Assembly: GCA_026401035.1 (NCBI GenBank) | Contig: JAPLNR010000053.1 | Location: forward strand, 89,451 to 153,450 | Reading direction: 5' to 3' | DNA length: 64,000 bases | From: Planctomycetia bacterium | Lineage (GTDB): Bacteria; Planctomycetota; Planctomycetia; Pirellulales; UBA1268 | In this document: piece by piece, positions 8,391 through 51,956 of the stretch | How positions within the stretch are numbered: position 1 is the first letter of the stretch | How the letters are laid out: every line of letters starts with the position of its first letter | The notes under the pieces: generated by a model | Databases searched by the model: none | Told to the model about the DNA's origin: nothing | What the model saw: only the letters and a program-made list of their open reading frames with translations | Translations under genes and position numbers: made by a program

Positions 8391-8925
8391 AGAGCGACTG
8401 GCTCTTCACGATCGCGAGATCGTCGGGAAACGTGTGGAAGGCCTGCACGAGCAGACTCTTGGCCCGGGTTTCGATGTTGATCCAACTGATCGCCCCCAGC
8501 GCCAGACGGCCGCCCGATTCGAAGCGGTGGAACATGCCGTGCTTGATTCCCTCGGCGCAGAGTTCCTGTTGGAATGTCCAAAACACCTCGGGCGCCACCG
8601 CCTCGAGCTGGAAGCAGGTCTGGTAGGAGGCACCACCGCGGCACTCCAGGCGGTCGCTCCGCTCACCGCTGAGCTTGGAGGACAGCAGCCGGCGCTTCTG
8701 GGGCAGCGGCTGGGCGGCGCTGGCCGCCACCTCGGAGAGCGTCAGCCCGTCTTTTCGCCAGGTGACGACGTGGCCGGCGCTCGTGATCGCCACCATCGCC
8801 TGATAGCCACCGCGCTCGATCGACCGTGTTGAGACGATTTCGAAGAGCTCGGGGTGCAGCCCCCGGCCATACAGCTGAAAGACCAACTCGGTGACTTTGG
8901 GGCGAACCGACAGCACTCGTTTCAT
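8377..8925 (-). CDS. conserved hypothetical protein (soluble, ~180 aa)
   Basis: ORF 8377..9015 trimmed to ATG 8925 (MKRVLSVRPKVTELVFQLYGRGLHPELFEI...). It reads like a conserved family of unknown function that I cannot name with certainty. It overlaps the response regulator ORF by 14 nt. Confidence 0.5.
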   Translation of the reverse strand: MKRVLSVRPKVTELVFQLYGRGLHPELFEIVSTRSIERGGYQAMVAITSAGHVVTWRKDGLTLSEVAASAAQPLPQKRRLLSSKLSGERSDRLECRGGASYQTCFQLEAVAPEVFWTFQQELCAEGIKHGMFHRFESGGRLALGAISWINIETRAKSLLVQAFHTFPDDLAIVKSQSLFEIP

Positions 8926-9011
8926 CTCCCGGGGGAAGTCTTGAGTATAAAATCGCCGCCCACGATGCACAAAGCCGAGTCCTGCAGCCAGCACAAACCG
9001 TACCGTGGCGA

Positions 9012-9875
9012 TCACAAGAGCCCGACGAGCATGTCGTATGCGGCATGGGCGCCGGCGGCGATGCCGAAGCCGCGGACCACGAAGAGCGTGGCAAAGAAGA
9101 TGCCGGCCAGAGCGCGAAAGGCGAAACTGTAGAGCTCGAAAGCGTCGCCGAGCGGACCGATGTAATGCGCGGCGCTGAACAGCAGGCTCGTCAGGAGCAC
9201 CGACCAGAGGCGGGCAGGCGTCGCGGAAACCCCGGCCCGCGCGAGCACCCAGATCACGACCGGCAGCAGAATGAGCCTGAAAAGCACCTCTTCATAGAGA
9301 CCGGCGCCACAGTAGCCGATGAAGCGGGTAAAAATCCCCGTCAGGCCGTCCACGATCCCCAGCGGCCAGAGTTGATGCTGCAGCCGCGCCAGGCCCACGA
9401 GCACCCCCGCCCAAAGCAGACATTCCATGACCATGCCCGCGAGCACGGCGGGGCTGAACCGCCAGCGGTCGTGCTCGATGTGGTGCCAGGCCAGCAGTCC
9501 GAGCACCATGAGCACCGGCAGCAGGAAATAGGACCCAAAGCCGAGCCCGTCGAGGAGCTGCCGTAGCCAGACATCGGCACCATTGCGGGGCGATCCGCGG
9601 CCCAGCCAGAGCACCCCGCCTTCGTACGCGAGCACCAAGGGCAGCGTGAACATCAGACTCGTCAGCGGCGTGCGGGAGAGACTCCAATAGGTTTCAAACG
9701 CCTCCGGAATTCGCTCCGCCGCCACGTCGTCGACGGCGTCGGTCGCGTCCGCCTCCGATCCAGACTCCGATCCGGAAAACTCACGGATGAGTTCGTCGGC
9801 TTGCCCGTCAAGACCCTGCGCTGCAGGGCCGGAAAAATCAGGCGTGTCGCGATCGGTGGATGAGGACGATGGCAT
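9012..9875 (-). CDS. CPBP-family intramembrane glutamic endopeptidase (CAAX protease/Abi-like)
   Basis: Motifs LYEEVLFRLILLP, FSAAHYIG and AAGAHAAYD on a multi-TM background. The start is uncertain (Met53 of ORF 9012..10031 chosen). Confidence 0.75.
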   Translation of the reverse strand: MPSSSSTDRDTPDFSGPAAQGLDGQADELIREFSGSESGSEADATDAVDDVAAERIPEAFETYWSLSRTPLTSLMFTLPLVLAYEGGVLWLGRGSPRNGADVWLRQLLDGLGFGSYFLLPVLMVLGLLAWHHIEHDRWRFSPAVLAGMVMECLLWAGVLVGLARLQHQLWPLGIVDGLTGIFTRFIGYCGAGLYEEVLFRLILLPVVIWVLARAGVSATPARLWSVLLTSLLFSAAHYIGPLGDAFELYSFAFRALAGIFFATLFVVRGFGIAAGAHAAYDMLVGLL

Positions 9876-10412
9876 GCCGGGCGGCTCGTGGGCGTTTGTG
9901 GTCAGCGGTACGCGGGCCGCGGAGAGTGCGGATTTACCGACTGTTTTCGTGGAAATGCGCCGGATTGTGCAAGGCAAATGGCATCGCGGCCGCAACGGCG
10001 CTGCGACCGGGGATGCTGGCGCTGCTGGCAAAAAAGTTTTTCAAAAAAGCACATGCGTTTTTGTTCGGTGTTTTATGGACGTGGCACTCCGGTCGCCGCG
10101 CGCATGGCTCCAGAGTCCTTGACAACTTCGACTCCCTCGGAAGAATGACGCCCGGTGGTCGAGTCGATGGTCGGGAAACGATTCCCGTCGTCCTCGCCGC
10201 GAAAAATCTCGCATCAGCAGCGACAACAAATACAAGGAGTCTGACTCGGATATTGGGGGGCGACGACTTGAGGGATCGAAAGTCGACGACCTTGGTCGTG
10301 GCCTGGATGTCCCCCCCGCTTTCGAGTGTTTGCCTGCGGGCGTCAGTAGCTGAGAGTTGCCTCGGCGGGGTGGCGGCCCCGTAGAATCAAGGCGAATACG
10401 GGGCACTACTCA

Positions 10413-11543
10413 ATGGCACGATGCCTGATCGGATGCGGTTCGAACCAGGGCCGGCGGCGGGAATACCTCGACCGGGCCCTCGAACTTTTGCGCTACATGC
10501 CGGGCGTGACCGTGCTGGCCGTCAGTCGGCCGCTGGAGACGCGGCCCATCGGCGGCCCGGCCGGCCAGGCACCATTTCTCAACGGTGCCTGTCTCCTTGA
10601 AACCGACCTCGGCCCGCACGAGGTGCTGGGCATGCTGAACGCGGTCGAGAATACGCTGCACCGCGAACGGACCGAACGGTGGGGGCCGCGAACGATCGAC
10701 CTCGATCTGCTGCTCTACGACGATCTCGTGCTCGACACCTCGAGCCTGACGTTGCCGCATCCCCGCATGACCACGCGGCGGTTCGTGCTCGAGCCCTGCG
10801 CGGAAATTGCGGGCGACGCCATGCATCCGCGGGCCGGCTGCACGGTACGGGCGCTGCTCGACAACATCTCGCAGCCGCATCCGCACGTGGCGATCGTCGG
10901 CGTGCCGGGAGCCGGCGCTCCGGAGGTGGCCTCCGTAGTCGCCGATGCGATGCTCGCCCGGCTGGTGCGCAATCCAGCGCCGCTCACGCCACAGCTCTTC
11001 GAGCCGCCCGCAGGCGACGCCGTGACAGACGCCGACACCGCGCGACTCGAAGCGGTCTGGCGGCAGTCGCTGGCCGCGCGGGCCCGGCCGCTCGAGGCTG
11101 CCGGATGGCCGGATGATCCACACGGCACCGTGGCCGACTACTGGCTGGAAACCCAGCGGCTCGCCGCCGAAGAGATCCTGCCGGCTGCATCCCGCGCGGC
11201 ATTCGCCGCCCTGTTCTCGACACATGCCGCCACCACCGTCGCGCCCCACGTCGTGGTGCTCCTGCACGTGCAGCCGGAAGTTTTGGAGGAACGAATCGCG
11301 TTTCGTGCCCGCCGGCCCGCGCCGCACTCCGACATCTTCGCGGCGCTGACGCCGACGGCCGTGTGCCCATCGACGCAGGAATCGGTGCGGCTGCTGATGC
11401 GGCTCCAAGATCGTCTCGCCTGCCGCCTGCGGACGGCCGATCCGGCCTGCGGCACGCGACCCAAAGCCACTGTCGTCATCGATGGCGGCGATCTGGGGCA
11501 GGCCGCCCTCGATGCCGTGGCCGCCGTCGAGGCGATGGCGTGA
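10413..11543 (+). CDS. folK: HPPK (2-amino-4-hydroxy-6-hydroxymethyldihydropteridine diphosphokinase) fused to a ~210-aa C-terminal P-loop-kinase-like domain with a degenerate Walker A
   Basis: The N-terminal 160 aa read IGCGSNQG...VSRPLETRPIGGP.Q..FLN....ETDL.P.E.L......E..L.RER..RWGPRTIDLDLLLY....L.....LTLPHPRM..R.FVL.P. The remainder contains VAIVGVPGAGAPEV, which has no Lys-Ser/Thr. Confidence 0.85.
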   Translation: MARCLIGCGSNQGRRREYLDRALELLRYMPGVTVLAVSRPLETRPIGGPAGQAPFLNGACLLETDLGPHEVLGMLNAVENTLHRERTERWGPRTIDLDLLLYDDLVLDTSSLTLPHPRMTTRRFVLEPCAEIAGDAMHPRAGCTVRALLDNISQPHPHVAIVGVPGAGAPEVASVVADAMLARLVRNPAPLTPQLFEPPAGDAVTDADTARLEAVWRQSLAARARPLEAAGWPDDPHGTVADYWLETQRLAAEEILPAASRAAFAALFSTHAATTVAPHVVVLLHVQPEVLEERIAFRARRPAPHSDIFAALTPTAVCPSTQESVRLLMRLQDRLACRLRTADPACGTRPKATVVIDGGDLGQAALDAVAAVEAMA

Positions 11544-18585: not shown

Positions 18586-18633
18586 GGCAGGCTTGAGCCT
18601 GTCGCTGTGATTGACAGGCTGAAGCCTGTCCTA
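18586..18633 (-). repeat. two adjacent REP-like hairpins; the second carries the TAG stop of the gene at 18631..18906
   Basis: GGCAGGC-ttga-GCCTGTC lies at 18586-18603 and GACAGGC-tgaa-GCCTGTC at 18613-18630, followed by CTA (18631-18633). On the minus strand this reads TAGGACAGGCTTCAGCCTGTC. Confidence 0.85.
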
Positions 18634-20774: not shown

Positions 20775-21608
20775 ATGAGTGTGAGAAGCGTGTCGAACGT
20801 CTTGGCCCAAGAGTTGATCGAAGCCGGCGTGCATTTTGGCCATCGTGCCAGCCGCTGGAATCCGAAGATGAAGCCGTACATCCACGGCCGTCGCAACCTC
20901 ATCCACATTATCGACGTCCGCGAGACCATCCGTGGACTGCTCCGGGCCCGCAAATATCTGAAGCAGGTGTCCACCACCGGCAGCCTCGTGCTCTTCGTGG
21001 GTACGAAGCGGCAGGGCGCCGAGGCCGTGGCCCGCGAGGCGGCCCGTTGCGGCATGCCCTACGTGAGCGACCGCTGGCTTGGCGGCACACTCACCAATTT
21101 CCGCACGATCCGCAACCGTCTGGCCCGCCTCGAGGAACTCGAGAAACTCATGCCGTCGGAGGAATTCAGCGCCTACTCGAAGAAGATGCAGTCGTCGCTG
21201 CGGCGCGAGTTCCGCAAGATGGAACGGAATCTCGGCGGCATTCGCACACTGTCGCGGCTGCCCGAATGCCTCGTCGTGTTCGACCCGAAGAAGGAAAAGA
21301 ACGCGGTCAACGAGGCCCGGAAGATGGGCATCACCACCGTGTCGCTGATCGACACCGACTGCGACCCCGACATGGTCGATCTGCCGATCCCCGGCAATGA
21401 CGACTCGATCCGCTCGATCGAACTCGTCGCCGCCCGACTGGCCGACGCCATCCTCGAGGGCAAGTCACAGGTGGCGGCTGAAGCTCAGGTGAAGGCCGAG
21501 GGTGCCGACGTGTCCGGCGACGCCGAGACGGGCGAGGGCAAGGCGAAGGCCGGCCCGAAGCCCCGCGCGACCGCCAAGAAGGCCATGCCGAAGCCCCCGA
21601 AGGTCTAA
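20775..21608 (+). CDS. rpsB: 30S ribosomal protein S2
   Basis: Trimmed to ATG 20775. [33 protein letters not shown] with a Lys/Ala-rich acidic C-terminal tail. Confidence 0.92.
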
Positions 21609-21770
21609 AGCTCTCATGCGGGGAAGGCCGCCCATGGCCCTTTCCCGCTTGGCAGCGGCAGAAACGCCAAGGTTTTTGCCACTGCCGGGCATGGCCTGCC
21701 ACCGTGCTTCGCCTTGTGGCCACGACTTTTTCCAGCCAGCACACATCGTTTGACAGAGGAGTGAAGACCC

Positions 21771-22610
21771 ATGGCCGAGATTACAGCAGCCGCAGTGATG
21801 GCCCTCCGCGACAAGACGGGCCTGCCAATGATGGAGTGCAAAAAGGCGCTCCTGGAGTGCGGCGGCAACACCGACGAGGCGGTCGAGTGGCTCCGCAAGC
21901 AGGGCATCAAGACACAGGCCATGCGGGCTGACCGCGAGATGTCGATGGGCCGGCTGGCCGTCTATGCCGATCCGGCGAAGGGCGTAGGCACGATCATCGA
22001 ACTGAAGTGCGAGAGCGCGCCGGTGGCCGGCAGCCCCGACTTCAAGGATCTCGCCAACGACATCGCGAAAACACTGGCCCTTGGTCCGGGCGCGAAGACG
22101 CCGGCCGATCTGCTGGCCCAGAAGAGCCAGGCACACCCCGACAAGACGCTCGGCGAACTGAAGGACGACCTCTTCAATCGCATGCGCGAGGTCTTCGACC
22201 TGGCGCGGATCTGCCGCATCGATGCCCCGTGCGGCGGCTATGCCCATCACGACGGCTCCAAGGCGGCGCTCGTCGAGGTCGCCGGCAAGACAACTGCCCC
22301 CGAGGCGGCCACGACCGCCAAGGAGATCGCCATGCACGTCGTGGCGCTCGCTCCGCAGGCGATCACCAAGGAGGATCTCGATCCGGCCGTGGTCGCCAAG
22401 GAACGGGAGATTCTCACCGAAGCGGCCCGCAGCGAAGGCAAGCCGGAAAACATCATCGCCAAGATGATCGAGGGTCGGCTGCGAAATTTCTTCAGCCAGT
22501 GCGTGCTCCTCGAGCAGCCGTTCGTGAAGGACGACAAGCAGACGGTCAGCCAGTTTGCCAAGGCGGCCGGACTCGAAGTGAAGCGGATGGAGAATTGGAA
22601 GCTATCTTGA
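21771..22610 (+). CDS. tsf: translation elongation factor Ts
   Basis: [45 protein letters not shown] (UBA-like N-terminus), with an AGAGGAG Shine-Dalgarno (SD) sequence upstream. Confidence 0.92.
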
Positions 22611-22653
22611 CGCGGTGCGAGCCAGCCCTGGCCGCTCTCAGGACCGACAAGAC

Positions 22654-23388
22654 ATGACGGCTGCTCCTTATCGCCGCGTGCTCCTCAAACTCTCGGGTGA
22701 GAGCTTCGCCCGGCCGGGAGAGCGGGGCATCTCGATGGACGAGGTCGTCCACGTGGCCCAGCAGATGGTCCAGGCCGCCGCGAGCGGCGTGCAACTGGCG
22801 ATCGTCATCGGTGGCGGCAACATCCTCCGCGGGGCCTCGTTCACCGCCGGCAATTCCGGCGTGCAGGAGGCCACGGCCCACTACATGGGCATGCTCGCCA
22901 CCATGATCAACGGCCTGGCCCTGCAGGACGCGCTCGAAAGCCTCGGCGCCCAGACCCGGCTGATGACCGCGATCCGCATGGACGGGGTCGCCGAGCCCTA
23001 CATCCGCCGCCGCGCCCGCCGGCACCTCGAGAAGGGGCGGATCGTGATCCTCGCCGCCGGCACGGGCAGCCCGTTCGTGACGACCGACACGGCCGCGGCC
23101 CAGCGGGCCCTGGAACTCGAGACCGACATCCTCATGAAGGCCACGCGCGTGGACGGCGTCTTCTCCGACGACCCGGAAAAAAATCCCCATGCGTTGCTCT
23201 ACCGCGACCTCACCTACCAGCAGGTGCGGGAGCAGAATCTCCGCGTGATGGATGCCACCGCCATCTCGCAATGCATGGAACACGCGATGCCGATCCTCGT
23301 CTTCAACTACCGCAAGGAAGGCAACATCGAGCGGGCCGTGGCCGGTGAGCGGATCGGCACGCTGGTCAGCGCGAAGGTCGCCCCATGA
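22654..23388 (+). CDS. pyrH: UMP kinase
   Basis: Trimmed to ATG 22654. [33 protein letters not shown]-like and TTDTAAA.RA blocks. Confidence 0.92.
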
Positions 23389-25343
23389 GCCAACCCCACC
23401 ATGATCACCGCCACTATGCGTGGTGGCTGATCATGTGCCTCTGTGGTGTCGATTACTTCAGCACGCTCGGCTACCAGCCCTCGATCGCCTTCGAGGGGGC
23501 CGGCACGCTCGCCCCGATCGCGACGTTCGTGCTCGTGCTCGTGACGCTCTTCGGGGCCCTGCCGATCTACCGGCACGTGGCCGGCGAGACGCCCGACGGC
23601 GTCGGCTCGATCGGCATGATCGAGCGGATGTTCCGCGGCTGGTCGGGCAAGATCGTGGTGCTCGTGCTGATCGGCTTCGCGGCCACCGACTTCGTGATCA
23701 CGAAGACGCTCTCCGCCGCCGACGCGGCCGCCCATCTCATCAGCAATCCGCTCTACGCCGATATCGCGCCGGCCTGGATGCAGAGCCAGATGGCGGTGAC
23801 GATGTTTCTGCTGGTGATGCTGGGGGCGATGTTCCTCAAGGGCTATGGCGAGGTGGTGGGGCTGGCGACGATTCTCGTGATCGCCTTCCTCGGACTCTCG
23901 TTCGTGGTCATCGCGGCCGGGCTCTTCTACCTGTTCACGCATCCCACGCTCCTGCCGCACTGGATCGGCGAGATCACGGCCGGCAGCTACCACCTCGCCC
24001 ATGCCCCACTCCCCGGCAGCGGGCCCTGGGTCGCGCTTGGCATCTCGCTCCTGGTGTTCCCGAAACTGGCCCTCGGCTTGAGCGGCTTCGAGACGGGCGT
24101 GCTGCAGATCCATCTGGTCGAGGGCACCCCGGCCGACCCGGCGAACCAGGCAGCCCGCATCGCCAACACGCGAAAACTGCTCCTTGTCGCCGCACTCATC
24201 ATGTCGGTGCTGCTGATCGGCTCGTCGCTCGTGACCGGCACCGACACGCTGATCCCGGCCGACGAGCTCCGGCTCGAGCCCGTGAAGGGCAAGGCGATCG
24301 ACCGGGCGCTGGCCTACATCGCCCACGGCGAAAGCCCTCATCCGATCTGTCCGCTCTTCGGCAACGCGTTCGGCACCGCCTACGACGTGAGCACGATCCT
24401 GATCCTCTGGTTCGCCGGTGCCTCGGCGATGGCCGGCCTGCTCAACATGGTGCCCCGCTACCTGCCGCGGTTCGGCATGGCGCCGGAGTGGGCGGGGGCC
24501 TACCGGCCGCTCGTGATCGCCTTCACCGTCATCAATCTGGTTGTGACGCTCGCCTTCCGGGCCGACGTCTCCGCCCAGGGCGGCGCCTACGCCACGGGCG
24601 TGCTCGTGCTCATGACCAGCGCCTGCATTGCGTCGCTGATCCACATTCACAAGGAGTTCCGCAGCGCGACGGAGCATCGGGCAGGCCTCTTCTGGCAGCA
24701 AATCGGCTTCGGGCTGATCACGCTCGTCTTCATCTACACGACGCTCGCCAACATCTGGGAACGGCCCGACGGCATCATCATCGCCTCCATCTTCATCGCC
24801 TGCGTGATGCTGATCTCGTTCACGTCGCGGGCCTGGCGGAGTGACGAGTTGCGGCTCAAGGAATTCCGGTTCGCCGACGACGCCGAGCGGATGCTCTGGA
24901 CCGACATCCTGCTCGAGGGGGCGTTTCGGGTGCTCGTGCCGCACCGGCCGGGCAGCCGGTCGCTGGACGAGAAGGAGACGGAGATCCGCCGCAAGCACCG
25001 CATCCCCGACAACGTGCCCATCGTGTTTCTCGAGGTGCACTACGGCGACGTGAGCGAGTTTGAAAACGCGCCCATCATCTCGGTGCGGCAAGAGGGCAAC
25101 CGGTTCATCATCACGGCCCGCGATGTCGTCTCGGTGTCGCACACGATCGCCCAGCTCGCGATGGAGATGACCAAGAGCAGCGCCCCGCTCGACGTGGTCT
25201 TCGGCTGGAGCAAGGGCGGCAGCCTGAAACTCGCGCTTGATTACGTGCTCTTCGGGCAGGGCGACGTGCCCAATCGCGTGGTCGACCTGCTCGACAAGGC
25301 GATCACCGACCCCGCCAAGCGGCCGACCGTCATCGTCGGCTAA
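23385..25343 (+). CDS. APC-superfamily-like permease with a ~180-aa C-terminal cytoplasmic domain
   Basis: The ATG overlaps the pyrH stop (ATGA). It has about 12 hydrophobic segments in the first ~470 aa, then a soluble tail (...[19 protein letters not shown]...[17 protein letters not shown]...). The family assignment is tentative. Confidence 0.55.
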
Positions 25344-25467
25344 CAAAGCTGGCCGCGCGGTGCGACCGGTCGGCTTGCCTGCGGCCAGACGCTCCTGCAA
25401 GAATTATGACTCTGCCGGCGCCGCGCCGGACCTGCCGCCGCCCCCGACCACGAAGGAGCCTTTTGCG

Positions 25468-26028
25468 ATGCCCGCCGACGACATTCTGCTCGACGCCGAG
25501 GAACGGATGGAGAAGGCGGTCGATGTCTTCCGCCACGCGCTGACCGGCATCCGCACCGGGCGGGCCAACCCCGGGCTCGTCGATTCCCTGCGGGTGGAGG
25601 TCTATGGCTCCCCGACCCCGATCAAGGCGTTGGCGAGCGTCGGTGCGCCCGAGCCCAACCAGATCGTCGTGCGGCCGTTCGATCCGGGCACGATCAAGGA
25701 TATCGAGAAGGCGATCCAGGCCTCCGACCTGGGGCTCAATCCGCAGAGCGACGGCCGGCTGATCCGGATCACGATCCCCGCCCTCTCGACGGACGTGCGG
25801 AAGAAGATGACAGCCCGCATCAAGGAACTGGCTGAGGAGTCCCGCGTGGCGATCCGCAACGTGCGCCGCGACGGCAACAAGGCGGCCGACACCGAGAAGA
25901 CCGACGGCACCCTCACCGAGGACGACTGCGAGTCGACCAAGGAGGAGGTGCAGGAACTCACGAAAAAGTATGAGGCGAAGGTGGGCGACCTCGCGCGGGC
26001 GAAGGAAGCCGAAGTGATGGAGCAATAG
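25468..26028 (+). CDS. frr: ribosome recycling factor
   Basis: Trimmed to ATG 25468, with a GAAGGAG SD sequence 10 nt upstream. GIRTGRANPGL.D...V.YG...P....A.V..PE......PFD; 186 aa. Confidence 0.92.
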   Translation: MPADDILLDAEERMEKAVDVFRHALTGIRTGRANPGLVDSLRVEVYGSPTPIKALASVGAPEPNQIVVRPFDPGTIKDIEKAIQASDLGLNPQSDGRLIRITIPALSTDVRKKMTARIKELAEESRVAIRNVRRDGNKAADTEKTDGTLTEDDCESTKEEVQELTKKYEAKVGDLARAKEAEVMEQ

Positions 26029-26046
26029 CGCCCGGCCCGCCGGCCG

Positions 26047-26811
26047 ATGCGTGTGGCAATGATCGAAGTCGTCGATCTGGTGAAGCACTACCGGGCGAGC
26101 GACGGCAGCGTGGTCCGCGCGGTCGATGGGGTGTCGTTGGCCGTCCACCCCGGCGAGATGGTGGGCCTGCTCGGGGCCAACGGCGCCGGCAAGACGACGA
26201 CACTGCGGGTGCTCGCCACGCTGCTCAAGCCGACGTCGGGTACCGCCCGCGTCGCCGGCTGCGACGTGCGGCACGATCCCGTCGGCGTGCGGCGCAGCCT
26301 CGGCTATGTGTCGGCGACGACGGGCGTTCCCGACCGGCTGACGGCCCGGGAGATCTTCAGTTCTTTCGGCGAACTGCATGGCCTGGAGGCGGCCGGCCTC
26401 GCGGCCCGCGTCGAACGGCTCATCGAGGTTCTCGACCTCGCGTCATGCGCTGACCGGCCGGCAGGGCGGCTCTCGTCGGGGCAGCGGCAGCGGGTGTCGC
26501 TCGGCAGGGCGCTCATTCACGATCCGCCGGCGCTGGTGCTCGACGAGCCGACCAATGCCCTCGACGTGGTCGGCGCCCGCGACCTGCTCTCGTTTCTTGC
26601 CCAGTTGCGGGGCGAGGGCCGCGCGATCCTGCTCTCCACCCACCGGCTCCATGAAATCGAAAATCGCTGCGATCGCTTCGTGATCATCCACGGCGGACGC
26701 GTGCTGGCCACGGGCACCCGCGACGAACTGCTCGCCGCCTGGGCGGACGGGCAGGGGGCCGAACTGGAAGACGCCTTCTTCGCCGCGTTGGCCGGAGGGG
26801 GTGCGGGATGA
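26047..26811 (+). CDS. ABC transporter ATP-binding protein (ABC-2/NatA-like)
   Basis: Walker A GANGAGKTT, Q-loop, signature LSSGQRQR, Walker B LVLDEPTNALD and an H-loop. Confidence 0.9.
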   Translation: MRVAMIEVVDLVKHYRASDGSVVRAVDGVSLAVHPGEMVGLLGANGAGKTTTLRVLATLLKPTSGTARVAGCDVRHDPVGVRRSLGYVSATTGVPDRLTAREIFSSFGELHGLEAAGLAARVERLIEVLDLASCADRPAGRLSSGQRQRVSLGRALIHDPPALVLDEPTNALDVVGARDLLSFLAQLRGEGRAILLSTHRLHEIENRCDRFVIIHGGRVLATGTRDELLAAWADGQGAELEDAFFAALAGGGAG

Positions 26812-28943
26812 GGCAGACGGAACGCCACGCCGGCGGACTGCGGGCCGCCCTCGCGATCGCCCGCCGCGACCTCGTGGAGTTTGTCCGCGACCGGCGCACG
26901 CTCTTCATCACGCTTCTGCTCCCGATGGTCACCTATCCGATCCTTGCCCTCTCGACGGCGCTCGGGCTGCGGACGGCCTCGAGCGAGATCGAGGCGCAGC
27001 GGGCACCGACGAAGATCGTCGTGACCGTCTCGGGTCCGGATGCAATCGCCCTCGTCGACCGCATTGGATTCGTGGAGAAAAAGACGACCGGCAGCGGCCG
27101 CGAGGGCTGGCCGTCTGCGATCGAAATGGAGGCGGTCACGGCCGCCGACGCCCGCGGGCGGCTCGATCAGGGGGTGGCCGATCTCTGGCTCGAGGCGCCG
27201 CGGGGCTGCATCGCGGCGCTCGATGCGGACGGGACGGTCGCCATCCCGGTGCACCTGCCGCCCGGCAGGCCGCCGAACCGCCGCGTGCGCGACCAGTTCG
27301 ACGCCGTCATGCGGAGCCTTGCCGAAGACGTCCGCTCCCGCCGCATCCAATTGGCCGGGCTGCCGGCGAGCGTGCTGGCCCCCTTGAAGCTCGTCTTCGT
27401 CGATGGGCTGGAGGAGTCTCGTCCACCGCCGGCCCACAGCATCATGTCGACGCTCGCCGGCGGCGTGCTCGTGCTCCTGGCGGTGCTCACGCTGACGGGG
27501 GCCTTCTATCCGGCGATCGACGCCATTGCCGGCGAGAAGGAACGCGGCACGATCGAGACGCTCCTGATCGCCCCCTGCGGTTCGCGGGACATCGTCTTCG
27601 GCAAGTTCCTCGCCGTGTTCACCGTGACGCTCGCCACGCTTGCGGCCAATGCCGTCTCGATCGCGGCGACGGCCGCGGTGTCGCGCCGGTTCCTGCCCGC
27701 CGACATCACCATGGCGCTGCCGGACAGCGCGGTGGTGGCAATCCTCGTGACGGTGCTGGCGTTCGCTGGGCTGGCGGCCCTATCCGCCGCGACGTGCCTC
27801 GCGGTGACGACGGCCTCGAAGAGCGGCAAGGAGGCGCAGAACACGCTCACGCCCGTGATCCTGCTCGTCAGCGCGCTGGCCGGCACGGCGCTGCTGCCCG
27901 GCATGCGGAGCGACAGCCTGCTGGCGGCGGTGCCCTTTTCGGGGCAGGTGCTCGTGTCGCGGGGCGTCTTCGCGGCCGGCGAGGCCGGGCCGCATGCCGT
28001 CCCGGCCGTTCTTGGCCCGCTGGCGGTCACGCTCCTGTCGGCGGCCGCGGGCACCTGGCTCCTGCTGCGGGCCACGGCCTCGATGCTCACCGACGAAGAC
28101 ATTCTCTTTCGCGGCGGCGACGTGGCCGGGGCGGGCTTCAACCGGCCCGGCCGGCGGACGCGGCCCAATGTCGTGCAGGGCGTGCTGCCGATCGTCGCCG
28201 GATTGGCCGCGCTCTGGTATGTGCAGGGGATCTCGCCGGACGACCTCGTGCGGGCGATCCCGCTCCAGCAGACCGCCGCCGTCATCCTCCCGCTTTTGGC
28301 GGTGACCTGGTGGCAGCGGGTCGACATCCGGCAGACGTTCCGCCTCGCCTGGCCTGGTGGAGCCGCAGGGCCGGCCACGTGGTGGGGAGGCGTCGGCTGG
28401 CTCGTCGGCGCGGCGGCCCTCGGCGCGGCCGTGTTCGTGATCGGGGCCACCACGCTCCTGGCCGTGAAGGGCACGGTGCTGTCGGACGAGGCGCGGCTGC
28501 TCTCGAATAAGCTCCTCGAGTTGATGGAAAGCCAGCCCGCGTGGGTTTCCTGGGGGCTGATGGCGGCGCTCCCGGCTGTCTGCGAGGAATGCCTGTTCCG
28601 GGGCTGGGTGCAGAGCGGGTTTGCGGGCCGGGCCGAGTCGCGGCAGCGTGTCGTAGCGGCGATCGTCGCGCAGGCTGCGCTGTTTGCGGTCTTTCACCTG
28701 CTCCCGGAGCGGATGCCGCAGACCTTCTTCCTGGGGCTCGTGCTGGGCGGGCTGACCCACGCCTCAGGGAGCCTGCTGCCGGCCATCGTCTGCCACATCG
28801 CGCACAACAGCATGCCGCTGGCCCTCCTGGCCGCGGGCCTGCCTCGCTGGGCGCTGCCGGCATCTGTAGGATGTCTGCTGCTCGGAGCGGTTCTGCTCAC
28901 GAACGGCAGCCGCGGGCGCAGCAGGATGGAGCCTTTGGAATGA
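26808..28943 (+). CDS. fusion protein: ABC-2 (NatB-type) permease + C-terminal CPBP intramembrane protease domain
   Basis: ATGA overlap with the ATPase gene. The N-terminal part has TM1, a large loop, GEKERGTIETLL and 5 TM segments. The C-terminal ~230 aa carry the CPBP motifs EECLFRGW, FAVFHLLP and HIAHNS. Confidence 0.8.
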   Translation: MRQTERHAGGLRAALAIARRDLVEFVRDRRTLFITLLLPMVTYPILALSTALGLRTASSEIEAQRAPTKIVVTVSGPDAIALVDRIGFVEKKTTGSGREGWPSAIEMEAVTAADARGRLDQGVADLWLEAPRGCIAALDADGTVAIPVHLPPGRPPNRRVRDQFDAVMRSLAEDVRSRRIQLAGLPASVLAPLKLVFVDGLEESRPPPAHSIMSTLAGGVLVLLAVLTLTGAFYPAIDAIAGEKERGTIETLLIAPCGSRDIVFGKFLAVFTVTLATLAANAVSIAATAAVSRRFLPADITMALPDSAVVAILVTVLAFAGLAALSAATCLAVTTASKSGKEAQNTLTPVILLVSALAGTALLPGMRSDSLLAAVPFSGQVLVSRGVFAAGEAGPHAVPAVLGPLAVTLLSAAAGTWLLLRATASMLTDEDILFRGGDVAGAGFNRPGRRTRPNVVQGVLPIVAGLAALWYVQGISPDDLVRAIPLQQTAAVILPLLAVTWWQRVDIRQTFRLAWPGGAAGPATWWGGVGWLVGAAALGAAVFVIGATTLLAVKGTVLSDEARLLSNKLLELMESQPAWVSWGLMAALPAVCEECLFRGWVQSGFAGRAESRQRVVAAIVAQAALFAVFHLLPERMPQTFFLGLVLGGLTHASGSLLPAIVCHIAHNSMPLALLAAGLPRWALPASVGCLLLGAVLLTNGSRGRSRMEPLE

Positions 28944-30028
28944 GCAGATGCAGGGCTGGGTGGGCAGTGGTGCTGTGGGTGTTCACGATCTCCACCGCCG
29001 CTCTGGCGGCCGACACTGCGGCCACGCCACCGCGACTGCGGGTGGCCGTCACCCCGATCGCCTCGGCGCTGGAGTGGACCGGCGAGCAGCCCACCGGCGT
29101 GATGGTCGACATCTGGGAGAATCTCGCCGGCCGTCTCGGCGTGACGACCGACTTCGTGAAGGCGGCGACGTTCTCCAAACTGCTTGCGACGCTCCCGGCC
29201 GGAGAAGCCGATGTCGCCCTCGGGCCGATAGCGATCACCGAGGAGCGGGAACGGCGGGTGGATCTCACCCACCCGATTTTTCACTCCGGCCTGCGGATCG
29301 CCGTCCGCCAGCGGAACAACTCAGGATTTCTCGCGGCGCTCCGCTCACTGCTCTCCTGGGACCTGCTCGGATTGCTGGGGCTCGTCATCGGACTGGCGCT
29401 GCTGTCGGGCCATCTTCTCTGGTGGTTCGAGCACAAGGGCAACGACAGGTCGTTTCCACCGCAGTATCCCCGCGGCGTCGGGGAGGCGACCTGGTGGATC
29501 GCTTCGACGATCGTCACCGGTGGCTGCGACGACAAGCACGTTGACAGCATGCTGGGCCGTGGGATCGCCCTCATCTGGATGGTCGGCGGCATCGGGCTGA
29601 TCGCCGCGTTCACCAGCGTGCTCACCGCCACGATGACGGCGGAGCGGGTGACCGGCACGATCCAGGCGGTCCGTGATCTCGCCGGCCGCACGGTCGGCTG
29701 TCAGATGGAGGCCGTCTCGATCGAGTCGGTGAGGCAGCGGGGTGGAATCGTGCAGGAATTTTCCACGCTCACCGAGGCGCTCGATGCGCTTGACCTCGGC
29801 ATGGTGGAGGCCGTGGTGGGGGAAAATCAACAGCTGATGTATCTCACCAACCAGTCCCGGCGGGGAACCATCCGACTCGTCGGCGCCATGTTCGACTCAT
29901 TCGACTACGGGCTCGGCCTCCCCGCCGGCAACGCCCTCCGCGAGGACCTCAACACGGCGATCCTCCGCATGCGGGAAGACGGCACGCTCAACCGCATCAA
30001 GGAGGAGTGGCTCGGCAGCCACGAGTAG
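28940..30028 (+). CDS. GluR0-like ligand-gated channel: periplasmic binding-protein fold split by a 2-TM pore module
   Basis: ATGA overlap with the upstream gene. The order is a signal peptide, SBP lobe 1, TM (LLGLLGLVIGLALLSGHLLWWF), pore loop EATWWIASTIVTGGCDD, TM (GIALIWMVGGIGLIAAFTSVLTA), then SBP lobe 2 ending ...LNRIKEEWLG. 362 aa. Confidence 0.7.
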   Translation: MSRCRAGWAVVLWVFTISTAALAADTAATPPRLRVAVTPIASALEWTGEQPTGVMVDIWENLAGRLGVTTDFVKAATFSKLLATLPAGEADVALGPIAITEERERRVDLTHPIFHSGLRIAVRQRNNSGFLAALRSLLSWDLLGLLGLVIGLALLSGHLLWWFEHKGNDRSFPPQYPRGVGEATWWIASTIVTGGCDDKHVDSMLGRGIALIWMVGGIGLIAAFTSVLTATMTAERVTGTIQAVRDLAGRTVGCQMEAVSIESVRQRGGIVQEFSTLTEALDALDLGMVEAVVGENQQLMYLTNQSRRGTIRLVGAMFDSFDYGLGLPAGNALREDLNTAILRMREDGTLNRIKEEWLGSHE

Positions 30029-30046
30029 GACAGGCTTCAGCCTGTC
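30026..30046 (+). repeat. REP-like hairpin TAGGACAGGCTTCAGCCTGTC (the TAG is the stop of the channel gene)
   Basis: 7-bp stem and 4-nt loop. It fills the 22-nt gap between convergent genes (stops at 30028 and 30051). Confidence 0.85.
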
Positions 30047-30050
30047 ATCC

Positions 30051-31505
30051 TCAAGCCAGCAGGGCCTTGACCGGCTTCGCCGGCTCGACGCCCGTGAGCT
30101 TCGAATCGAGGCCCTGGTATTGCACGGTGAACCGCATGTGGTCGATGCCCAGCAGGTGCAGCATCGTGGCATGCAGGTCGCGGACGTGGACGACGTCCTG
30201 GATGGCGTTGTAGCCGAAGTCGTCGGTCGCACCGTGCACGATGCCCGGCCGAATGCCGCCGCCGGCGAGCAGCATGCTGAAGCCCTTGATGTGGTGGTCG
30301 CGGCCGATCTGCTCCCCCTTGCCCTGGCCCATCGGCGTCCGGCCAAACTCGCCGCCGACCACGACGAGCGTCTCGTCGAGCAGGCCGCGGCGTTCGAGGT
30401 CGATCAGGAGCGCGGCCGCGGCCTGATCGGTCGGCGGGCAGATCTGCTGCATGTAGCCGTCGATGCCACCGTGGTGATCCCAGTCGCTGTGATAGAGGTG
30501 CACGAACCGCACGCCCCGCTCCACGAGCCGCCGCGCCATCAGGCAGTTGGTGCCGACGGTCGCCTTGCCCGGTTGCGCGCCGTAGAGCGCGAGCGTCTCG
30601 GCCGATTCGCCGGAGAGATCGGCGAGTTGCGGCACGCTCGTCTGCATCTTGAACGCCAGTTCGTACTGCCTCAAGCGGGTCGCGATCTCGGGGTCGGCGA
30701 GTGACGCGAGCCGATGGTTTTCCAGCGCCGCGACCGTGTCGATCAGATCCCGCTGGTGGGCCGTCGACACGCCGGGCGGATTGGTCACATAGTGCACCGG
30801 CGGCCCGCTCGTCGAAAACTCGACGCCCTGAAACTGCCCCGGCAAAAAGCCGGAGTGCCACTGCCGCGCCGCAATCGGCTGTGGATTGCGGCCCAGCTTG
30901 CTGGTCATCACCACGAAGCCGGGCAGGTCGTGGGCCTCGCTGCCGAGGCCATACGTCACCCAGGCCCCCATGCTCGGCCGGCCGGAAAGCCCGGTGCCGC
31001 AATTCATGAACGTGTGGGCCGGATCATGATTGATCTGCTCGGTCACCATGCTTCGCACGACCGCGTACTTGTCGGCCAGACTCCCCAGCAACGGAAAGTA
31101 GTCGCTCACCTCCGTGCCGCACTCACCATGCCGCGAAAATGACTTTCTGGGACCGAGGCAGATCAGTTTCTGCCCCTGGAGCTGCGCGATCGGCTGGCCG
31201 GCCGTCACGCTCTCCGGCATCTCCTTGCCGTCGAGTGTGGCGAGCAACGGCTTGGGGTCGAAGGTCTCCAGATGGCTCGGCCCGCCGGCCAGGCAGAGGA
31301 AGATCACCGACTTGGCCTTGGGCGGATGGTGGAGCGGATAGACCGCGCCCGGATAGCGGCCGGCGGCAGGAGCCGGGCCCGCGGCCGCCGAGACGGTCGC
31401 CGCCAGCCCGTCGCGGGCCAGCAGCCCCGCGAGCGCGGCGCCGCCGAGCGACAGGCCCGATCGGGCGAGGAACGTGCGGCGGTGGATCGCGAGTGGGTCG
31501 TGCAT
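30051..31505 (-). CDS. DUF1501 domain protein (sulfatase-fold, Tat signal)
   Basis: The N-terminus is Tat-like (HRRTFLARSGLSLGGAALAGL). FLCLAGGPSHLETFDPKP, GGEFGRTP and DHH..GFSMLLAGGG blocks are typical of DUF1501. Confidence 0.85.
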   Translation of the reverse strand: MHDPLAIHRRTFLARSGLSLGGAALAGLLARDGLAATVSAAAGPAPAAGRYPGAVYPLHHPPKAKSVIFLCLAGGPSHLETFDPKPLLATLDGKEMPESVTAGQPIAQLQGQKLICLGPRKSFSRHGECGTEVSDYFPLLGSLADKYAVVRSMVTEQINHDPAHTFMNCGTGLSGRPSMGAWVTYGLGSEAHDLPGFVVMTSKLGRNPQPIAARQWHSGFLPGQFQGVEFSTSGPPVHYVTNPPGVSTAHQRDLIDTVAALENHRLASLADPEIATRLRQYELAFKMQTSVPQLADLSGESAETLALYGAQPGKATVGTNCLMARRLVERGVRFVHLYHSDWDHHGGIDGYMQQICPPTDQAAAALLIDLERRGLLDETLVVVGGEFGRTPMGQGKGEQIGRDHHIKGFSMLLAGGGIRPGIVHGATDDFGYNAIQDVVHVRDLHATMLHLLGIDHMRFTVQYQGLDSKLTGVEPAKPVKALLA

Positions 31506-40538: not shown

Positions 40539-40556
40539 GACAGGCTTCAGCCTGTC
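40536..40556 (+). repeat. REP-like hairpin TAGGACAGGCTTCAGCCTGTC (the TAG is the stop of the LarA-like gene)
   Basis: Identical 21-mer to 30026 and 51936. Confidence 0.85.
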
Positions 40557-44130: not shown

Positions 44131-44276
44131 GTCGGTCAGTATCGCAGGGCCGCAGACGGGCAGAAGCCCGTCCCGATCCTGTTCGGCACGGCCCGGGCCA
44201 GGCCCGGAGGGCCGGGTTGAAGCCAGCCACCGGATGTTTCCCGTGAAGCCACCTGCTGGGGAGGCGAGGCCGGAAG

Positions 44277-51935: not shown

Positions 51936-51956
51936 TAGGACAGGCTTCAGCCTGTC
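51936..51956 (+). repeat. REP-like hairpin TAGGACAGGCTTCAGCCTGTC
   Basis: Third identical plus-strand copy, 110 nt after the kinase stop. Confidence 0.85.

Follow-up and report, generated by a model that had tools for sequence, protein, structure and literature searches.

Several described systems resemble, part by part, a locus of three overlapping genes found in a 64,000-nucleotide stretch of a Planctomycetia bacterium genome (GenBank assembly GCA_026401035.1, contig JAPLNR010000053.1, positions 89,451 to 153,450 of the forward strand), which is referred to below in its whole length as the window. The genes encode an ATP-binding cassette (ABC) ATPase (G1), an ABC-2 permease that continues into a CPBP protease domain (G2) and a subunit of the ionotropic glutamate receptor (iGluR) type (G3). 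The analyses performed incline us, although only slightly, towards the view that the locus specifies an ABC-2 exporter with a CPBP protease, with which the iGluR-type G3 would be stoichiometrically and physically associated in one uncultured clade of freshwater Planctomycetota.

Closest described systems

On the exporter side, members of the NCBIfam family NF041647 share with G2 the order of the two domains, an end-to-end profile match, the invariant GEKERGT and CPBP motifs, and an adjacent, overlapping ATPase gene. The difference is that G2 scores below the family cut-off of 435 bits and that no iGluR-like partner was found among the family members and neighbourhoods sampled elsewhere. We know of no experimentally established function for this family. 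NatAB is comparable in that an ABC-2 permease (ABC2_membrane_2/3/4 in the case of G2) is encoded next to its ATPase, the place taken here by G1. In the EcsAB-RasP system of Bacillus subtilis an ABC-2-type transporter is needed for the function of an intramembrane protease, and the pairing of an ABC-2-type exporter with such a protease is what it has in common with the locus described here. RasP, however, is a site-2 metalloprotease rather than a CPBP protein, is not fused to EcsB and has no channel partner.

On the channel side, bacterial homologues of iGluRs are, to our knowledge, few and mostly studied as isolated domains, with no partners known. GluR0 of Synechocystis (slr1257) and other prokaryotic iGluRs have the same minimal architecture as G3 (signal peptide-S1-M1-P-M2-S2) and, as G3 does, a conserved arginine in the S1 lobe and a conserved acidic residue in the S2 lobe, which were described as conserved ligand contacts by Ger et al. 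2010 (PMC2950845). The selectivity filter sets them apart, reading T-V-G-Y-G-D in GluR0 and TGGCDD in G3; since the K+ signature is missing, G3 is nearer to the non-K+ “Group 2” of that survey than to the GluR0 kind (PMC2950845). Neither Group 1 nor Group 2 of the survey contained a protein with an ABC-transporter domain, whereas G3 is here coupled or fused to an ABC transporter (PMC2950845).

AMPA and kainate receptors provide the best fold and sequence matches of G3 over the ligand-binding domain (LBD) and transmembrane domain (TMD), with the pore-tip residues G-C-D and a related M3 gate motif, and they also provide the idea of a channel core ringed by accessory membrane proteins. Against this likeness stand an identity of only ~20%, the lack in G3 of the amino-terminal domain, M4 and cytoplasmic tail, and the nature of its partner, an ABC exporter/protease unrelated to cornichons or to transmembrane AMPA receptor regulatory proteins (TARPs). 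The ATP-sensitive K+ channel (KATP), in which Kir6.x and the sulfonylurea receptor (SUR) combine a pore-loop subunit and an ABC protein 1:1, serves as a working analogy, a 1:1 ratio being imposed by gene fusion in relatives of the present locus. It differs in that the partners share no homology beyond the ABC ATPase, in that SUR is a type IV protein of the ABCC group while G2 is of type V with a separate ATPase, and in that G3 is predicted to be ligand-gated from the periplasm.

Judged by their sequences, then, the parts of the locus are familiar. What is new is their conserved coupling and the triple fusion, both confined so far to a single uncultured lineage. Full-text literature searches returned no description of a link between ABC-2/CPBP proteins and iGluRs. 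The preliminary description of the window, made from its letters, had known of no described system with this combination, and searches on CPBP/ABC fusions and on iGluR/CAAX links likewise brought up none. The fusion of an ABC-2 permease with a CPBP domain, on the other hand, is not new, being already annotated as NF041647 and widespread in Planctomycetota and other phyla.

Conserved coupling and natural fusions of G2 and G3

The three genes and their overlaps are as follows (aa, amino acids).

26047-26811, + strand: G1, ABC transporter ATPase, 254 aa (open reading frame (ORF) translation, Pfam)
26808-26811, + strand: ATGA, overlap of the G1 stop and G2 start codons (sequence)
26808-28943, + strand: G2, ABC-2 permease/CPBP protease, 711 aa (ORF translation, Pfam, NF041647)
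28940-28943, + strand: ATGA, overlap of the G2 stop and G3 start codons (sequence)
28940-30028, + strand: G3, iGluR-type subunit, 362 aa (ORF translation, Pfam)

All three are read from the + strand and the ATGA overlaps lie exactly where they had first been placed. For comparison, a pattern scan with the G3 alignment over one genome per species, followed by tblastn with the proteins of the window, yielded 72 loci, 6 of them uninformative (G3 at a contig edge) and 66 informative. They derive from uncultured metagenome-assembled genomes (MAGs) assigned to Planctomycetota, bar a few evidently mislabelled bins, and to Pirellulales/Planctomycetia where they are classified, which puts the window itself in an uncultured lineage of that phylum. 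In 58 of the 66 informative species-level loci G3 has G2 directly upstream, and each locus with a long enough contig also has G1 in front of G2; the other eight informative loci have G3 without adjacent G1-G2. The trio, initially seen in one genome and proposed as a unit that should recur in others, is thus co-conserved outside it.

The link between G2 and G3 is confirmed by loci in which the boundary between the two proteins has disappeared. In 14 of the 58 linked loci G2 and G3 occupy a single open frame, and the ten of these ORFs that are complete encode 1,062-1,133 aa without any internal stop codon. Independent searches of metagenome proteins recovered many more, partial CPBP-G3 fusions as well as full triple fusions such as P0166 (with 36 member sequences), P0171, P0210, P0224 and P0233. 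In a neighbour-joining tree of G3 the fusions fall into two separate clades, one of which is sister to the clade of the window, while the second, with 48-50% identity in G3, is the deepest branch of the tree. At the fused junction a basic loop separates two transmembrane (TM) helices, the second of which is the former signal peptide of G3, and this topology fits a cytoplasmic C-terminus of G2 and a periplasmic S1 lobe.

Where the genes are separate, a four-nucleotide NTGA overlap of stop and start codons is kept between G2 and G3 in 38 of 44 unfused loci, although the proteins encoded there are only ~50-80% identical to those of the window. Stoichiometric expression, suggested earlier on the basis of a single genome, is plausible precisely because the overlap itself is conserved. 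The single-ORF fusions and the conserved overlap argue for an association of G2 with G3, and the predicted physical link between them can be called unusually well supported for a purely genomic finding. The surroundings are less constant: a DUF1501 gene lies downstream in only ~14 loci and a 652-aa ORF upstream in 11, so that the flanks vary while the trio stays, which points to a persistence of the trio that exceeds block synteny.

A deep-branching locus, L079, departs from this pattern in one respect. Its G2 frame (8610-10505) runs past the G3 stop in a different frame, and the arrangement looks like a frameshifted or mis-assembled form of the fused gene present in the sister loci L078 and L080.

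G3, a subunit of the iGluR type

28940-29011, + strand: predicted signal peptide, aa 1-24, ...TAALA/AD (model helix 5-23, AxA rule)
29030-29323, + strand: S1 lobe, aa 31-128 (aligned with 2pyy, a bacterial iGluR LBD, and with GlnH-type binding proteins)
29357-29431, + strand: M1 helix, aa 140-164 (model helix, Lig_chan)
29471-29545, + strand: pore helix and pore loop WWIASTIVTGGCDDKHVD, aa 178-202 (model, with helix 178-193; conservation)
29549-29650, + strand: M2 helix, aa 204-237 (model helix, HMMER alignment to GluA1)
29651-30025, + strand: S2 lobe, aa 238-362 (alignments to 4zv1, 2pyy and 4f3p)

The fold proposed for this protein at the outset, a periplasmic binding protein split by a two-TM pore, is recovered by Pfam, where SBP_bac_3 (E 6.4e-25) is interrupted by Lig_chan (E 5.9e-12, aa 149-258) and by a marginal match to Ion_trans_2 (24.6 bits). 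A single phmmer stretch (aa 78-358, E 3.7e-21) aligns G3 with the LBD-TMD of GluA1, spanning both the ligand-binding and the membrane domain. The AlphaFold2 (AF2) model has a mean predicted local distance difference test score (pLDDT) of 81.5, and every top Foldseek match to it is an LBD-TMD chain of an AMPA or kainate (GluK2) receptor, with E 4e-25. The order of elements is signal peptide, S1, M1, pore loop, M2 (corresponding to eukaryotic M3) and S2, with which the 362-aa protein ends; there is neither an amino-terminal domain nor an M4. The signal peptide would be cleaved after ALA, and in the fused homologues it has become an internal TM helix.

Both lobes retain the residues expected to hold an amino-acid-like ligand. 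The S1 lobe contains GPIAITEER, with the invariant R103 at the position of the arginine that binds the alpha-carboxylate, and E295 in S2, conserved in at least 90% of homologues, occupies the acidic position that binds the alpha-amino group and aligns with an Asp of 2pyy. In sequence the LBD is nearest to Gln/Arg-type binding proteins.

The pore, by contrast with the lobes, is the best-conserved segment of G3, the consensus frequency being 0.88 in the pore helix and loop vs 0.70-0.73 in the two lobes. G194, C196, D197, D198, K199, H200 and D202 are invariant in 56 G3 homologues, and the loop is also kept in solo G3 genes. The pore loop STIVTGGCDDKHVD contains no GYG or GFG and does not have the K+ signature T-x-G-Y/F-G; its invariant tip TGGCDD aligns, in TGGCD, with QQGCD of GluA1 (HMMER alignment). 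In the same alignment M2 AFTSVLTATMTAER pairs with the iGluR gate motif SYTANLAAFLTVER, and of the motif SYTANLAAF G3 keeps only a part, as FTSVLTAT. The earlier name “GluR0-like” is therefore apt for the architecture (S1-M1-P-M2-S2 without amino-terminal domain and M4) and inapt for the pore, where GYG is missing. It is tempting to speculate that the cluster of C196, D197, D198, H200 and D202 at the cytoplasmic end of the pore reflects non-selective or divalent-cation permeation.

Two further observations concern individual residues. The pore-tip G-C-D (29516-29530, aa 193-197) is identical to that of AMPA-type receptors, with D at position Q/R+4, the comparison being the alignment with GluA1. 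Residues specific to the G2-coupled lineages were considered as a possible signature of the interface in G3, and yielded three weak positions (33, 122 and 139) with no convincing pattern.

Could G3 be something other than a channel? It might be a membrane-anchored binding protein or sensor that feeds the ABC-2/CPBP machine, the pore-like segment being a mere anchor; homologues indeed bear the label “ABC-type amino acid transport substrate-binding protein”, the LBD is closest to Gln/Arg-type binding proteins, G3 is fused to an ABC permease, and importers such as GlnPQ are generally known to carry binding domains fused to permeases. With a mere anchor one would hardly expect conservation in G3 to peak in the pore helix and loop and to hold there even in solo genes, and the whole M1-P-M2 module resembles iGluR channels in both sequence and fold. 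Binding proteins are, moreover, not generally known for type V (ABC-2) exporters. We therefore consider a non-channel role of G3 rather unlikely.

G1 and G2, an ABC-2 exporter with a CPBP protease

26808-28091, + strand: G2 ABC-2 transmembrane domain, aa 1-428 (AF2 model, Foldseek)
27531-27566, + strand: GEKERGTIETLL in the ABC-2 domain, aa 242-253 (translation)
28092-28169, + strand: Arg-rich linker joining the ABC-2 domain to the CPBP domain, DEDILFRG...RPGRRTRP (conservation)
28170-28940, + strand: G2 CPBP domain, aa 455-711 (Rce1-like match, motifs)
28584-28601, + strand: CPBP motif 1 EECLFR (within EECLFRGW, aa 593-600), aa 593-598 (translation)
28683-28697, + strand: CPBP motif 2 FAVFH (within FAVFHLLP, aa 626-633), aa 626-630 (translation)
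28794-28808, + strand: CPBP motif 3 HIAHN (within HIAHNS, aa 663-668), aa 663-667 (translation)

By its sequence G1 is a canonical ABC ATPase: it matches ABC_tran (Pfam, E 6.5e-30), and its translation contains the Walker A motif GANGAGKTT, the signature LSSGQRQ, the Walker B motif LVLDEP and the H-loop STH. Its best NCBIfam matches are of the DrrA, GldA and NodI type, each below cut-off, and PADLOC returned only generic ATPase similarity; a role in defence was rejected.

G2 matches ABC2_membrane_2 (E 5.7e-17) as well as ABC2_membrane_3/4 and, at aa 578-669, the Rce1-like/CPBP family (E 2.3e-18). The NF041647 profile is covered nearly from end to end (aa 12-673 on profile positions 3-633 of 636, E 6.7e-120) with a score of 401.7 bits, below the curated cut-off, so that G2 is best regarded as a member or near-member of that family. 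Pfam and NF041647 thus agree with the preliminary description of the gene as an ABC-2 permease fused to a complete CPBP domain, and the motifs quoted there are all present.

A sequence search with G2 against the PDB gave no match. In the AF2 model (pLDDT 80.3) an N-terminal amphipathic helix and TM1 are followed by a periplasmic alpha/beta domain of ~145 residues and five further long helices; it is our own assignment on this model that the six long helices of the ABC-2 domain are TM helices. The nearest solved folds found by Foldseek are the type V exporters ABCH-9C, NosY, ABCG and CcmB. Residues 242-253 are invariant or nearly so in the alignment of close homologues. The linker, with the invariant residues D429, E430, L433, F434, R435, G436, R446, P447, R450 and P453, would be cytoplasmic by the positive-inside rule; after it the model shows a bundle of ~nine helices, and a last TM helix with a basic tail follows CPBP motif 3. 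E593, E594, R598, F626, H630, H663 and N667 do not vary among 29 homologues, and the motifs EExxxR, FxxxH and HxxxN are invariant in distant NF041647 members too, from which it follows that the protease is presumably active.

A reading that leaves G3 as a channel and dissolves the complex is a pump-and-leak pair, in which G1-G2 would act as a NatAB-like Na+ extruder and G3 as an independent cation channel on the same ion gradient. Homologues of G2 are named “sodium transport system permease” or “ABC-type Na+ efflux pump permease” by the Joint Genome Institute (JGI), D197, D198 and D202 form an acidic cluster in the G3 pore loop, and the overlaps would provide co-expression. The Na+ label, like the earlier “NatB-type” designation of G2, turns out to be no more than a COG-level transfer, with no NatB-specific model matched, and none of the structural neighbours of G2 (ABCH, NosY, ABCG, CcmB) is an ion pump. 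Such a pair would also leave unexplained both the conserved CPBP domain and the repeated fusion into one polypeptide, and we regard it as unlikely.

Limits of the association

A number of observations weigh against an obligate partnership of G3 with the exporter. In four species frr, the gene for ribosome recycling factor that precedes G1 in the window, has G3 as its immediate successor, and in another four G3 stands in unrelated surroundings. Conversely, in L088, whose G2 is 53% identical to that of the window, the order is pyrH-frr-two extra ABC pairs-G1-G2-PPDK and G3 is missing, and hundreds of NF041647 clusters exist without G3. The sampled species are closely related, their frr proteins sharing ~90% identity, so that the synteny is in part inherited rather than selected. 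Finally, the fused proteins may be cut by signal peptidase after membrane insertion, a possibility raised by the AxA-like sites that persist at the junction. That the CPBP protease might itself free G3 in the fused proteins was considered as well and was not adopted, these sites explaining processing more simply.

In the four species with frr followed by G3 (L027, L072, L074 and L076), which lack G1-G2 at this place, G3 in its longest frame begins with a GTG, and four nucleotides are shared with the stop codon of frr. G3 is there apparently tied directly to a translation-factor gene.

The same observations could be taken to mean that there is no functional link at all, G3 having been inserted after an old frr-G1-G2 block and kept by descent in a narrow clade. 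The L088 block without G3, the eight species in which G3 lacks adjacent G1-G2, and the origin of all 72 loci from related Planctomycetota MAGs speak for such a history. It does not readily account for fusions in two separate clades, the deepest one included, for an overlap kept in most unfused loci, or for flanks that turn over around a trio that stays, and it seems to us improbable.

The wider family gives a measure of how far the exporter goes without the channel. At E <= 1e-30 the G2 family comprises 480 clusters (50% identity), nearly all of them with two domains and a length of 650-790 aa; just two of the 480 reach ~1,100 aa. All 29 distant representatives tested match NF041647, P0255 with as many as 574 bits, and distant members occur in Phycisphaerae, Isosphaeraceae, Hydrogenedentes, Lentisphaerae and Zixibacteria. 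Neither solute-binding protein (SBP) or Lig_chan domains nor an iGluR-like partner were found among the best 120 NF041647 members listed, and no G3-like gene was found in five sampled NF041647 neighbourhoods; the longer NF041647 proteins carry no additional Pfam domain, except P0227, a partial G3 fusion. A partner ATPase gene overlapping the permease start is also seen in L085, L086 and L089. Since NF041647 is widespread without G3, and since L088 lacks it, G1-G2 is on this comparative evidence an old, self-sufficient module and G3 a lineage-specific recruit whose link to it is not obligate.

Two distant NF041647 genes, L083:5012-6726 and L084:5214-6907, have no adjacent ATPase gene and are preceded by a conserved pair encoding a tandem-PDZ protein and a NUDIX hydrolase.

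Self-protection against antimicrobial peptides or bacteriocins, with the ABC-2 exporter and the Abi/CPBP domain as immunity devices and G3 as an accessory, was an early reading of the locus that we now find very improbable: LanFEG/SagGHI-type exporters and Abi/CPBP proteins are, as is generally known, classical immunity components, and there are weak NCBIfam matches to the SagH permease and a lantibiotic-protection ATPase, but the immunity-family matches are all far below cut-offs, PADLOC is negative for G2 and G3, no bacteriocin genes or genes for ribosomally synthesised and post-translationally modified peptides (RiPPs) lie nearby (the neighbours being rpsB, tsf, pyrH, frr, the DUF1501/PSD1 pair and PPDK), and the position in a housekeeping-gene cluster, after frr, is conserved across species.

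A working model and its significance

An ABC-2/CPBP exporter with an associated iGluR-type subunit, the interpretation preferred here, can be turned into a working model. G1 and G2 would form an ATP-driven ABC-2 (type V) exporter whose permease carries a catalytically intact CPBP protease, and the logic of the G2 fusion may be that a substrate is cleaved in the membrane and the product then expelled, as in EcsAB-RasP. In one clade of uncultured Planctomycetota MAGs G3 would have been recruited to this machine and be made 1:1 with G2, by translational coupling in the window and as a single polypeptide in relatives. Like other pore-loop channels, G3 is expected to be a tetramer, flanked by ABC-2/CPBP units; as type V exporters are dimeric, two of them for each tetramer would give the 1:1 ratio. 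A small periplasmic ligand of the amino-acid type would close the clamshell and gate a cation pore that is not K+-selective, and the state of the channel and the ATPase/protease cycle of G1-G2 may influence each other. Regulation could run either way, the ligand controlling the exporter or the ATP cycle controlling the channel.

It is intriguing to go one step further and to picture the tetramer with four ABC-2/CPBP units and their ATPases as a supercomplex, a bacterial counterpart of KATP that would mechanically link ligand binding to ATP hydrolysis and, possibly, to intramembrane proteolysis as well. We offer this extension tentatively and consider it doubtful. If true, it would give a bacterial homologue of glutamate receptors its first known “auxiliary subunit” system, and the AMPA-like GCD pore tip would make the clade informative on the origin of the eukaryotic iGluR pore.

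The repeated fusion of a channel to an exporter/protease also has more immediate uses. It offers a concrete hypothesis on what bacterial iGluR channels work with, and the partnership with G3 would be the first functional lead for the large NF041647 family. The natural single-chain fusions of ~1,100 aa are ready constructs for cryo-electron microscopy (cryo-EM) and biochemistry, and the non-K+ pore tip bears on the divergence of eukaryotic glutamate-receptor pores from K+-channel-like ancestors. Should the coupling amount to co-expression only, the locus would be a tidy case of lineage-specific operon growth, of limited wider interest.

Genomic setting of the locus

25468-26028, + strand: frr, ribosome recycling factor, directly 5' of G1 (PF01765 on the identical gene of locus L001)
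30029-30046, no strand assigned: repetitive extragenic palindromic (REP)-like hairpin GACAGGC-TTCA-GCCTGTC (directly 3' of the G3 TAG stop codon)

In public contigs identical to the window a same-direction run, rpsB-tsf-pyrH-(652-aa membrane ORF)-frr, leads up to the locus. G1 starts 18 nucleotides past the frr stop codon, and in related loci this gap is mostly 16-40 nucleotides. A consensus scan of 21000-30400 gave no promoter-like sites and no enrichment of terminator-like sites (6 vs 3.4 expected), none of which lies between genes, and is uninformative on transcription units. With an 18-nucleotide gap and no promoter- or terminator-like site in between, the trio probably forms the last part of a longer transcription unit, one running from the rpsB-tsf-pyrH-frr side. 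The “three-gene operon” of the preliminary description is accordingly borne out as far as co-direction and overlap are concerned, whereas its extent was probably drawn too short, the longer run including frr.

The start of G3 deserves a comment. Its longest mechanical ORF begins at GTG 28541, which was rejected as the start because the extension crosses the CPBP coding region in another frame and is a high-GC artefact. ATG 28940 is the start used by public gene calls on identical metagenome contigs, and it is backed by the overlap conserved in the related unfused loci.

The 652-aa ORF at 23385-25343 (+ strand), which separates pyrH from frr, encodes a multi-pass membrane protein, and an overlap of four nucleotides joins its start to the stop codon of pyrH. 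No match to it was obtained in Pfam, NCBIfam or PADLOC. Its homologues are 76-91% identical and, being present in just 11 of the 72 related loci, mark it as a variable insert of the tsf-pyrH-frr cluster. On the other side of the trio the window contains the DUF1501 gene (30051-31505, minus strand) and a PSCyt/PSD1 gene, while in L087 the full trio is followed by a PPDK gene, the same as in L088.

Ten related loci (L025, L031, L048, L051, L052, L078-L080, L082 and L088) have two extra pairs of an ABC ATPase and an ABC-2-like permease between frr and G1. The pairs encode proteins of 342+410 aa and 317+271 aa (e.g., L048:2727-6809), two of the four without a family match, and make up a run of three ABC systems together with G1-G2; most carriers have the fused G2-G3 gene. 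At the same frr-G1 position gaps of ~3.7-3.8 kb are seen in L034 and L049.

The hairpin with which G3 had been said to end occupies the gap between two convergent stop codons, that of G3 and that of the minus-strand DUF1501 gene, and its designation as a REP element is borne out by recurring copies. The 18-nucleotide sequence GACAGGCTTCAGCCTGTC is found again at 18586 and 18613 (a tandem pair, 18586-18630), at 40539-40556 and at 51939-51956, with a weaker copy at 44155-44172. In all, the window holds five strong copies and one weak copy, with 11 strand-matches against 0.08 expected by chance, and we take the hairpin, on its recurrence, to represent a REP-like or terminator-like repeat family of this genome. 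The strong copies all lie just past the 3' ends of genes, four of the five, at three of the four sites, between convergent genes, and the copy at 40539 directly follows the stop codon of a + strand gene.

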